Source: Escherichia coli (GTDB taxonomy: Bacteria > Pseudomonadota > Gammaproteobacteria > Enterobacterales > Enterobacteriaceae). From it: a stretch of DNA of 64,000 bases. The notes under the pieces are model-generated. The model did no database searches. It was not told where the DNA came from and saw only the letters and a list, made by a program, of their open reading frames with translations. The first letter of the stretch is position 1. The number at the start of each line of letters is the position of its first letter. This document shows, piece by piece, positions 50,659 through 55,671 of the stretch. The stretch is from NCBI RefSeq assembly GCF_003018255.1, contig NZ_CP027440.1, one strand, 5' to 3'. A program made the translations under genes and the position numbers.

Positions 50659-50747
50659 GCTGCCTGTCCTGTCGTGTGTGGTGAATTACCGCCTCTTGTC
50701 TCCCTCCGGTTACCCGAAGGGAGCGGACCTTCTTTCACCGATGGCGA

Positions 50748-51530
50748 TTAACCACCATAAACATCAAAATCGAAGTACTTTTTCGCTAATTTCTCGTAAG
50801 TACCGTCAGCGCGCATTTCGGCAAAGGCTTTGTTCAGTGCCTCGCGCAGTTCGTTATCTTCTTTACGCAGGCCCATGCCGGTCCCTACGCCAAACAGTTT
50901 TTCATCTTTAACAGACGGACCACCGAATTTGTAATCTTTACCGACGGGTTGTTTGAGGAAACCTTCGCTGGCAGCGACCTCATCCTGGAACGCGGCATCA
51001 ATACGTCCGGCAGTCAGGTCAGAATAAATGTTGTCCTGCCCCTGATAAGAAACGATTTCAATGCCTTTTGGTGCCCAATGTTCGTTACCGAACGTCTCCT
51101 GGGTGGTGCCCTGCAATACGCCTACCCGTTTGCCTTTCAGCGACTCGACTGTCGGCTGAATGTCGGAATTTTTCGCCACCACCAGACGAGAATCGGCAGC
51201 GTACAGTTTGTCGGTGAAGGCAATTTCTTGCTGACGTTTTTCCGTAATGGAAAGCGATGACATGATGGCGTCAATCTTCTTCGCTTTTAAGGACGGGATT
51301 AACGCATCCAGTGGGTTTTCGACAAACGTACATTGCGTATTGATGCGTTTGCACAACTCCTTCGCCAGATCGATATCGAAGCCAACCAGTTCGCCTTGTG
51401 AATTTTTTGATTCAAATGGCGCATAGGTCGGATCGGTACCGATGCGGATGTTTTGCGGAATCGCAGCAAACGCAGCAGTTGCGCTGGAGAAGGCCAGAAC
51501 CAGAGAGAGCGATAGCACCAGTTTTTTCAT
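50748..51530 (-). CDS. hisJ: histidine-binding periplasmic protein
   Basis: 260-aa ORF with signal peptide; paralog of adjacent argT. Confidence 0.92.
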
Positions 51531-51665
51531 AATGTCCTCAACTGACAGTCTTTTTATAGGGAATATTTACAGGTTTGTTACACTTATCGTGCCATAAAAT
51601 TGACCATCAAGGCAAAATATCCCGCCCCGTTAGACGTATTATTTTTCATTAAAAATGCTTAAGTA

Positions 51666-51720
51666 TGCATTTCAATGCACCACGATAGTGCAACAAACCT
51701 GGCGTGCACCATGATGATCA
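51666..51720. promoter_or_regulatory. cluster of operator-like palindromes between argT and hisJ (NtrC- or ArgR-type candidates)
   Basis: TGCATT-TC-AATGCA perfect palindrome overlapping TGCACC-ACGAT-AGTGCA, then GTGCACCATGATGATCA. Confidence 0.35.
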
Positions 51721-51750
51721 TTCCATCAGGTACAGTTTCCCTGCGACGTA

Positions 51751-52533
51751 TCAGTCACCGTAGACATTAAAGTCGAAATACTTTTTCGCCATCTTGTCGT
51801 AGGTACCGTCCTGACGCAGCTCGCCAAGCGCCTTATTAAACGCCGCCGTCAGTTCAGCATCATCTTTACGTAGCCCTACACCGGTACCGTCACCGAAGTA
51901 TTTTTTGTCTTTCACTGATGAGCCAGCAAAAGCGAACTCTTTACCGGCTGGTTGCTTGAGGAATCCTTCACTGGCAGCAACTTCATCTTGTAACGCAGCA
52001 TCCAGACGTCCTGCAGCCAGATCGGAATAAACCAAATCCTGGTTGGCATAGGCCACCACATCCACGCCTTTGCTACGCCAGGTCTCGTTAGCGTATGCTT
52101 CCTGGGTTGATCCCTGCAGCACACCCACATGTTTACCTTTCAGTGAATCCAGCGTTGGCTGAATCGGTGAACCTTTGGCGGCAATCAAACGAGAATCTGC
52201 GGCGTACAACTTGTCGGAGAAAGCAATCTCCTGCTGACGTTTATCGGTAATGGAGAGCGACGAAATAATGGCGTCGATTTTTTTCGCTTTTAGTGAGGGG
52301 ATCAGCGCGTCAAAGTCACTGGCAACCCAGGTACATTTCACCTGCATCCGTTTGCACATCTCGTTACCGAGATCGATATCAAAGCCAACAAAGTCACCTT
52401 TGGCATCTTTCGATGAGAACGGCGCATAGGTGGTATCGGTTCCGATACGTACCGTCTCCGGTAGCGCCGCATAGCTGGAAGCCGCTGCGGAGAGACCGAC
52501 TAACAAAGACAGAGCGAGAATCGACTTCTTCAT
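51751..52533 (-). CDS. argT: lysine/arginine/ornithine-binding periplasmic protein
   Basis: 260-aa ORF with signal peptide; upstream paralog of hisJ. Confidence 0.92.
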
Positions 52534-52617: not shown

Positions 52618-52798
52618 TCTTTACGACAACAGTAACATTCAACGTTAAATATGTTAATAAGACGTTGCATTATTGTCCTAAAGTTGAAGATAGCAGGTAT
52701 GGCGGTTGAATCGCAGCGTTTCGATTCATCGAAAGGAACAAAATGTCGAGGATTTGATCGCGGTTGCAAAATTGCCCTGAAACAGGGCAACAATGAGG

Positions 52799-53368
52799 TT
52801 ATGCGCCCTGCCAGCGGGCAAAGAGATCTTCAGGAAGGGTTATCGCAAACTGGTCAAGAACACGATTAACCGTCTGATTTATCACATCATCAAGGGATTG
52901 TGGGCGATGATAAAACGCCGGAACGGGAGGCATAATCACCGCACCGATTTCTGCCGCCTGAGTCATTAAACGCAGATGGCCTAAGTGCAGTGGCGTTTCA
53001 CGCACGCAGAGCACCAACGGGCGACGCTCTTTCAGCACCACATCTGCCGCACGGGTCAGTAAGCCATCAGTATAGCTATGGACAATGCCGGACAGGGTTT
53101 TGATTGAACAGGGTAAAATCACCATCCCCAACGTCTGGAAAGAACCGGAAGAAATGCTGGCAGCAATATCGCGCGCATCGTGTGTCACATCAGCTAACGC
53201 CTGCACTTCGCGCAGGGAAAAATCCGTTTCGAGGGATAAGGTCTGGCGCGCTGCCTGGCTCATTACCAGATGCGTTTCGATATCTGTGACATCGCGCAGA
53301 ACCTGTAATAAACGCACGCCATAAATCGCGCCGCTGGCACCGCTGATGCCTACAATGAGTCGTTTCAT
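52799..53368 (-). CDS. ubiX: flavin prenyltransferase UbiX
   Basis: 189-aa flavoprotein-fold ORF downstream of purF. Confidence 0.92.
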   Translation of the reverse strand: MKRLIVGISGASGAIYGVRLLQVLRDVTDIETHLVMSQAARQTLSLETDFSLREVQALADVTHDARDIAASISSGSFQTLGMVILPCSIKTLSGIVHSYTDGLLTRAADVVLKERRPLVLCVRETPLHLGHLRLMTQAAEIGAVIMPPVPAFYHRPQSLDDVINQTVNRVLDQFAITLPEDLFARWQGA

Positions 53369-55017: not shown

Positions 55018-55506
55018 TTACGCTCTGGGCAAGAAACTTGACGAGCTTTGCAGATAATCAAAAAACCATCTGATGATAAAACTGAACTGCGGGATCAGCT
55101 GTGATTTGCTCCAGTCTTCGCTTTTCGACACCCCGGTAAAGGAGTCGAGAAAGAAGAGAATGGCGGCAACAATCAACACACCGCGCAACGCACCGAAACA
55201 GACGCCCAGCACCCGATCGGTGCCTGACAACCCCGTTTTCTCTACCAACTGGCCTATCACGAAGTTCACGATAGCACCAACGATCAGGGTAGCGATAAAC
55301 AGTACCGCGATGGCAATCCCATTTCGAACCAGTTCGTCTTCAAAGCCCGTAAACCAGACTGACAGGTAAGTGTAGTAATGACTGGCAACAAAGAAAGCAC
55401 AACCCCATGTCACCAGCGATAACGCTTCACGAACAAAGCCGCGGATCAGGCTAACCAGAGAGGAAAAAGCAATCACCGCGATTATGGCGTAATCAATCCA
55501 GACCAT
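55018..55506 (-). CDS. cvpA: colicin V production membrane protein
   Basis: 162-aa membrane ORF immediately upstream of purF. Confidence 0.92.
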   Translation of the reverse strand: MVWIDYAIIAVIAFSSLVSLIRGFVREALSLVTWGCAFFVASHYYTYLSVWFTGFEDELVRNGIAIAVLFIATLIVGAIVNFVIGQLVEKTGLSGTDRVLGVCFGALRGVLIVAAILFFLDSFTGVSKSEDWSKSQLIPQFSFIIRWFFDYLQSSSSFLPRA

Positions 55507-55579: not shown

Positions 55580-55671
55580 GGGATTTCCTTCCCGCGCATC
55601 AATAAAAATGGCGCTGAAAAAACATTCAACGCCATCGACTTTTTATGCCTTTGCGGCATCGGGCAATGCGT

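Follow-up and report, generated by a model that had tools for sequence, protein, structure and literature searches.

The stacked palindromes between argT and hisJ in Escherichia coli as a likely upstream control module of hisJQMP, with an NtrC site beside an ArgR operator

The window analyzed here, a 64,000-nucleotide stretch of an E. coli chromosome, carries argT-hisJ-hisQ-hisM-hisP on its minus strand. The argT gene (51751-52533, minus strand) is separated from hisJ (50748-51530, minus strand; ATG at 51530, with hisQ, hisM and hisP following) by a 220-bp spacer at 51531-51750. A 501-bp query spanning this spacer (window 51400-51900) had matches in 5425 of 5426 complete genomes, annotated as argT and hisJ, and within the spacer K-12 differs from the window only at 51742 and 51736, neither of which falls in an element discussed below. 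Read along the hisJ strand, the spacer contains TGTACC (51734-51729), GGTGCA (51710-51705), the dyad TGCACTATCGTGGTGCA (51692-51676), a 3-bp gap, ARG box 1, TTT, ARG box 2, 17 bp, TTGCCT (51615-51610) and, 18 bp later, CACGAT (51591-51586), followed by a Shine-Dalgarno sequence and the hisJ start codon. An initial annotation of this DNA had drawn attention to stacked palindromes in the spacer; all three sequences that it quoted are found where it placed them within 51531-51750, among them GTGCACCATGATGATCA at 51704-51720. Farther downstream, the hisJ-hisQ spacer holds a G+C-rich stem-loop, CTCCCTTCGGGTAACCGGAGGGAG (50698-50727, minus strand), which may be an mRNA-stabilizing or attenuating hairpin that sets the ratio of hisJ to hisQMP expression.

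The most conspicuous NtrC-like element in the spacer is a putative high-affinity NtrC (GlnG) dimer site, TGCACTATCGTGGTGCA, at 51676-51692 on the minus strand, which agrees with the consensus at 11 of 12 positions. The initial annotation had read it as TGCACC-ACGAT-AGTGCA, one mismatch from TGCACC-N5-GGTGCA, and this description holds: on the hisJ strand, it is the sole match with at most one mismatch in the 64 kb. Shuffled sequences yield 0.16 such matches per window (~5e-4 per 220 bp), and a chance origin for the dyad was rejected. GTGCA/TGCAC pentamers are likewise abundant in the spacer (four observed versus 0.4 expected). The quality of TGCACTATCGTGGTGCA equals that of glnAp2 site 1 (with the glnA sites taken from the MG1655 sequence), and its centre (51684) lies at about -116 from a predicted sigma54 start at ~51568. 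The consensus itself, TGCACC(A/T)4TGGTGCA, is credited to Ames & Nikaido 1985.

Two weaker elements accompany this dyad on the minus strand. The first, ATGATCATCATGGTGCA (51705-51721), matches 8 of 12 positions overall and has an intact right half, GGTGCA (6/6, 51710-51705); it is the orthologue of a site at -166 in other genera, and among genera its GGTGCA reaches at least 90% conservation. Its centre (51713) is 29 bp, or about three helical turns, from that of the strong site. The second (51718-51734; left half TGTACC, 51734-51729) is a weak 8/12 match that we tentatively assign as a further upstream half-site element: its aligned counterpart in Citrobacter, Salmonella and Enterobacter is a TGCACC located at about -178, and it is variable within Escherichia. 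Counted together, the spacer has one strong NtrC dyad, the only site of full quality, and two 8/12 elements upstream, whose centres precede its own by 29 and 42 bp. Other genera have two to three NtrC-like sites of at least 9/12, at spacings of ~30 and 22 bp.

Two 18-bp imperfect palindromes (WNTGAATWWWWATTCANW) that stand 3 bp apart at 51671-51633 match the definition of an ArgR operator. ARG box 1 (AATGCATACTTAAGCATT; 51654-51671, minus strand) is the promoter-distal half, assigned from a double-box scan and the published layout, and begins 3 bp downstream of the NtrC dyad; its core, TGCATAnTTAAGCA, is nearly invariant across genera. The promoter-proximal ARG box 2 (AATGAAAAATAATACGTC; 51633-51650, minus strand), assigned from the same scan, has a conserved left half, ATGCAAAAAA. 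The pair scores 24/32 and ties for best among 127,924 window positions, ~5 sd above the mean (10.6, sd 2.7). The other double ARG-box match with this score, GCTGAAAAAACATTCAACGCCATCGACTTTTTATGCCTT (55613-55651), is flanked by a 162-aa ORF (55018-55506; cvpA, judging from its position) and the gene upstream of that ORF.

This arrangement agrees with what has been published for hisJ. [quoted passage not shown] The same summary describes ArgR repression of PhisJ as weak, direct and not due to steric exclusion, on the basis of footprinting and in vitro transcription, and an ArgR ChIP-exo signal has also been reported at hisJ. In the window, ARG box 2 ends exactly 17 bp before TTGCCT, the same spacing to the -35 element as published, so the predicted boxes at 51671-51633 fit the published operator. 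The initial annotation had named NtrC and ArgR as candidate binding factors; both appear to be right, at adjacent but distinct sites.

Comparison across the Enterobacteriaceae suggests that this layout is shared well beyond Escherichia. We collected 80 hisJ loci and aligned 42 upstream regions (alignment A1), 37 of them from outside Escherichia. Among these 37, conservation is concentrated in a few islands (GGTGCA, TG..C...TGGTGCA, TGCATAnTTAAGCA, ATGCAAAAAA, TTTTGCCTTG and TGGCACGATAAcTGCA), with little else retained. The 42 regions have a common order of NtrC sites, ARG boxes, TTTGCC and then TGGCAC-N5-nTGCA; in the other genera, the centres of the NtrC-like sites fall at about -166, -136 and -114 relative to the start that TGGCAC predicts. 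The ARG core and TGGCAC are separated by an unvarying 73-75 bp. The GGTGCA half of the strong dyad is at least 90% conserved outside Escherichia. Within Escherichia, the 12 specified NtrC positions are unchanged even in lineages whose 220-bp spacer carries up to 29 substitutions, and in E. albertii, all 29 spacer substitutions also spare the ARG box 1 core and TGGCAC...GTGTA. Several genera carry a G+C-rich, terminator-like or REP-like hairpin right after the argT stop (Klebsiella and Raoultella, L074 and L068, as well as other loci; A1 columns 120-175), which Escherichia, Salmonella and Citrobacter lack.

The stacking of palindromes appears to be a by-product of this layout in one lineage. 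The perfect 6-2-6 palindrome of the initial annotation is indeed present at 51666-51679 (TGCATT-TC-AATGCA on the plus strand, TGCATT-GA-AATGCA on the minus strand), but it is no independent site. It marks where two sites meet, as GGTGCAtt of the NtrC right half runs into gaaaTGCAta, the left half of ARG box 1. Perfect 6-N(0-6)-6 palindromes occur at ~0.54 per 220 bp in the window, and 11% of spacer shuffles hold at least two; by itself, the 6-2-6 palindrome is at chance frequency and unremarkable. The palindromes are stacked because both operators hold TGCA cores and stand back to back. In the 42-sequence alignment, the 6-2-6 palindrome is confined to Escherichia, where the gap between the NtrC site and the ARG box core is 6 bp, versus 25-27 bp elsewhere. 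Judging from the alignment, a deletion of ~20 bp (two helical turns) in the Escherichia lineage removed the proximal NtrC-like site and moved the strong site to -116, and this deletion produced both the back-to-back arrangement and the palindrome.

A sigma54-like -24/-12 element, TGGCAC-GATAA-GTGTA (TGGCACGATAAGTGTA; 51579-51594, minus strand), lies 116 bp downstream of the strong NtrC site and overlaps the probable sigma70 -10 element. The initial annotation had reported no convincing sigma54 element for hisJ, a statement that has to be amended, since this element exists. It is weak: it scores 12.1 bits, compared with at least 16.1 bits for the 26 Salmonella sigma54 promoters from which the matrix was built (this training minimum being the argT score), and is about sixth-best in the window under this Salmonella-trained matrix. 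Its orthologues are near-canonical (TGGCACGATAACTGCA in Citrobacter and TGGCACGATAGTCGCA in S. Typhimurium), conservation of TGGCAC among genera is 90% or more, and the -12 GTGTA also occurs in the sigma54-bound Salmonella hydN promoter, TGGCACGATTCGTGTATA. The Salmonella orthologue TGGCACGATAGTCGCATC has been tabulated as a predicted sigma54 promoter, and a footnote to that supplement mentions evidence, citing Ames & Nikaido 1985, that the Salmonella hisJ sequence "is not an active promoter". Published sigma54 ChIP-seq lists contain no site at hisJ, and RpoN gSELEX gave no peak there; a RegulonDB-based analysis counts hisJ among sigma54 targets and names hisJ and astC together as also ArgR-regulated. 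Alternatively, TGGCACGAT could be conserved as the TGn and extended -10 of a sigma70 promoter.

Of the candidate sigma70 promoters, TTGCCT-18-CACGAT fits the literature best. Its probable -35 element, TTGCCT (51610-51615, minus strand), follows from the published 17-bp spacing to the ARG boxes and lies in the conserved block TTTTGCCTTG, while CACGAT (51586-51591, minus strand), after an 18-bp spacer, is the probable -10, for which TG at 51594-51593 could serve as an extension. The promoter favored by the initial annotation, TTGATG-17-ATAAGT, is present (51610-51605 and 51587-51582), but TTGCCT-18-CACGAT agrees better with the published work. The gSELEX authors instead predict TTGAAA-16-TTTAAT for hisJQMP (PMC3946193). 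This alternative (51648-51675, minus strand) would lie wholly inside the palindrome and ARG box 1, with its TTGAAA -35 inside the palindrome, and is not conserved outside Escherichia. A sigma70 and terminator consensus scan of 51400-51900 returned no promoter, recovering neither published one, and one weak terminator-like site (51636-51623), and inspection by eye for an IHF site between enhancer and promoter gave GGTCAATTTTATG, a poor match, as the best. A conserved block, GGGCAGAATnTTTTGCCTTG (51609-51627, minus strand), overlaps the putative -35 and contains a short inverted repeat, GGCA...TGCC, that reads GGCG...TGCC in E. coli and GGTA...TGCC in Salmonella; adjoining it, the terminator scan weakly flagged CGTCTAACGGGGCG and a T-run.

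Mutations selected in the laboratory also fall in this core promoter. During co-culture evolution of histidine auxotrophs, mutations upstream of hisJ that improve histidine uptake recurred at -61/-62, -71 and -86, three places that lie within 51579-51616, outside the flagged palindromes and the NtrC and ArgR sites. The GC>AA change at -61/-62 (51591-51592) converts CACGAT to TACGAT and TGGCAC to TGTTAC. It thus improves the putative -10, which supports CACGAT as the sigma70 element, and destroys the sigma54-like -24, the loss of which was tolerated, or even beneficial, under those conditions. The -71 mutation is an AATT insertion at 51601. The T at -86 (51616) belongs to the T-run ahead of TTGCCT; its substitution by any other base was beneficial, which suggests loss of a negative element. 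[quoted passage not shown]

Occupancy data place NtrC in the spacer. Brown et al. 2014 performed NtrC ChIP-seq on nitrogen-starved cells, with reads mapped to NC_000913.2, and assigned their peak 12 (2424941-2425021, 23.7-fold) to hisJQMP. Since an NC_000913.2 position equals the window position plus 2373280, this peak converts to 51661-51741 and covers TGCACTATCGTGGTGCA; the conversion was checked with hisJ (2426006-2426788 in MG1655 version.3) and with the centre of the sigma54 motif at argT (2425890 in version.2, window 52610). The ChIP windows are 80 bp wide with a resolution of ~80-150 bp, which locates NtrC in the spacer and not to the base, and a window may sit more than 100 bp from known NtrC sites, as at glnA, where its centre is more than 130 bp off the classical sites. 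The operon hisJQMP is reported to be Ntr-activated, not Ntr-repressed, and the table of Brown et al. 2014 cites expression analysis for it. Together with the published ArgR boxes, the NtrC peak supports the proposal of the initial annotation that this is a regulatory site for hisJQMP.

The position of the NtrC window relative to the promoter differs between hisJ and other targets. The distance between window centre and sigma54 motif centre is 11-48 bp at glnA, glnK, glnH, nac, astC, yeaG and argT. At hisJ, by contrast, it is 114 bp, with the window centre upstream of the sigma54-like element and right over the cluster of NtrC consensus sites. This offset from the seven other promoters may be resolution noise. 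Alternatively, NtrC at hisJ may not engage a promoter-bound holoenzyme.

The region upstream of argT has its own lineage-specific features. Escherichia lacks a ~30-bp segment at 52791-52799, between the ubiX stop and a palindrome at 52790-52772. In many other genera, this segment carries an NtrC-like dyad ~220 bp upstream of the argT sigma54 start, as in Pseudocitrobacter (TGCACCAATGTGGTGCT) and K. pneumoniae (CGCACTATAGTGGTGCA). The palindrome is a perfect 8-3-8 inverted repeat (TTGCCCTG-TTT-CAGGGCAA; 52772-52790, minus strand) with AATTTTG behind it. It comes shortly after the end of ubiX, is conserved across genera and resembles an intrinsic terminator for cvpA-purF-ubiX.

Taken together, the stacked palindromes of the argT-hisJ spacer probably form the upstream control module of hisJQMP, with an NtrC site beside an ArgR operator; this good degree of confidence applies to the identity of the elements alone, as NtrC enhancer and ArgR operator. 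Under nitrogen limitation, phosphorylated NtrC would bind the strong dyad at 51692-51676, with the half-quality sites at 51721-51705 and 51734-51718 probably helping to assemble the active NtrC oligomer. Arginine-bound hexameric ArgR would bind 51671-51654 and 51650-51633 and bend the DNA. In the mechanism that we consider most likely, the NtrC oligomer would then loop over the ARG boxes to the weak sigma54 promoter TGGCAC-N5-GTGTA (51594-51579), which would overlap the sigma70 promoter that ArgR weakly represses. Whether NtrC activates a sigma54 promoter at hisJ in this way is, in our judgment, evenly balanced.

Other roles for these sequences could be proposed. In one, the palindromes would act at the RNA level, as hairpins of the argT 3' UTR that serve as terminator or stabilizer. 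The spacer RNA does fold somewhat better than shuffled sequences (z = -2.65), but 51660-51725 has no G+C-rich stem followed by a U run, no Rfam family scored above threshold (the best match being at chance level, E = 0.88), and genera with an argT terminator hairpin carry it separately, directly after the stop codon. Furthermore, none of the six dyad pairs is changed on both sides across the 42 sequences: variation is in the left half and GGTGCA is invariant, and this lack of compensatory change is the pattern of a protein site rather than of a hairpin. Scanning, pair changes and folding likewise gave no Rho-independent argT terminator at 51660-51725. The hairpin reading was rejected on folding and pair counts, and we regard it as extremely improbable. 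Also very unlikely is that NtrC does not activate at all and instead modulates sigma70 transcription: it would either block the predicted TTGAAA-16-TTTAAT promoter, in the way that it represses glnAp1, or compete with ArgR. The close packing of sites is consistent with such interference: the NtrC site ends one base ahead of the TTGAAA -35, and with an ARG box starting 3 bp away, the in vivo footprint of ArgR (~93 bp) would overlap the NtrC site. The lack of reported sigma54 occupancy in ChIP-seq and gSELEX and the footnote calling the Salmonella sequence inactive point the same way. However, hisJQMP is reported to be Ntr-activated and not Ntr-repressed, TTGAAA-16-TTTAAT is a prediction restricted to Escherichia, and modulation would leave the conserved enhancer-like geometry relative to TGGCAC unexplained.

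A less remote, though still unlikely, explanation is that the NtrC sites mainly serve the argT sigma54 promoter (52617-52602) as a remote downstream enhancer at ~0.93 kb, with hisJQMP induced by read-through from argT. It is established that NtrC enhancers can act over kilobases. E. coli has no NtrC-like site of at least 9/12 upstream of argT (the best is 8/12), while about half of the other genera have the -220 site, and Klebsiella and Raoultella a second at -190 (alignment A2), in the segment missing from Escherichia. The NtrC ChIP signal at argT is 5.4-fold and was added by hand, compared with 23.7-fold at hisJ; sigma54 was detected by ChIP-seq at argT and not at hisJ; a terminator scan and folding revealed no convincing intrinsic terminator between argT and hisJ; and others have treated argT-hisJQMP as one operon. 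On the other hand, an argTp-lacZ fusion moved to the lac locus was still Ntr-responsive, which suggests that argTp does not need the hisJ-proximal enhancer. The fixed spacing between the NtrC sites and TGGCAC across genera points to the hisJ-proximal promoter as the partner, and genera that keep argT-proximal sites keep the hisJ-proximal ones too. An evolutionary version of the idea seems slightly harder still to credit: the hisJ-proximal enhancer, as the only strong NtrC site left in the argT-hisJQMP cluster of Escherichia, would have been repurposed as a shared enhancer. From its place inside the transcribed region, ~0.93 kb downstream, it would drive the sigma54 promoter of argT, with hisJQMP induced by read-through. 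The -12 element of the hisJ sigma54-like sequence, which has GT in Escherichia versus GC in orthologues, would then be read as decay.

The control module favored here, with NtrC and ArgR sites upstream of hisJQMP, is already documented in E. coli, and is real but ordinary. The result matters little beyond annotation: this is a textbook-era promoter under nitrogen and arginine control, and occupancy of the spacer by NtrC and ArgR has been published. It does illustrate that an eye-catching stack of palindromes can be merely two ordinary operators standing back to back. The sigma54-like element overlooked earlier is real, but weak in Escherichia. Two lineage-specific deletions, one in the argT-hisJ spacer and one upstream of argT, have rearranged the NtrC sites of the cluster, which raises the small question of which promoter NtrC drives.

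Comparison with glnAp2 reveals the same dyad type, with TGCACCAACATGGTGCT and AGCACTATATTGGTGCA at glnA corresponding to TGCACTATCGTGGTGCA at hisJ. The hisJ sites at about -116 and -145 resemble those of glnAp2, at -108 and -140 (re-derived from MG1655), before a TGGCAC -24; both promoters have extra low-quality sites, and both are bound by NtrC in vivo in the same ChIP-seq set. Unlike glnAp2, hisJ has one full-quality site, a -12 with GT instead of GC, no reported sigma54 occupancy, and an ArgR operator filling the space between enhancer and promoter. In this last respect, the closer parallel is the astCADBE operon, which is said to have ArgR sites between its NtrC sites and its sigma54 promoter. 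Both loci present an NtrC enhancer, ARG boxes and a sigma54-type -24/-12 in the same order, bringing nitrogen and arginine signals to an arginine-related operon. They differ in that astC has a strong, sigma54-occupied promoter, and in that ArgR is reported to help activation at astC, whereas weak repression of sigma70 transcription is its sole demonstrated effect at hisJ.

The Salmonella dhuA (hisJ) region has the orthologous spacer, in which the orthologue of the flagged site, TGCACCATTTTGGTGCA, is a perfect consensus match (S. diarizonae) and TGGCACGATAGTCGCATC has been discussed as a sigma54-like promoter. It differs in a -12 that keeps GC and in a gap from the NtrC site to ARG box 1 that is ~21 bp longer, on account of which no 6-2-6 palindrome is formed there. 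The operators of artJ, artPIQM and the arg regulon are, like that of hisJ, composed of two 18-bp imperfect palindromes 3 bp apart. In contrast to these, the hisJ operator has boxes of the TGCAT rather than the TGAAT type and lies upstream of the -35 element instead of over it, with repression that is weak and non-steric.
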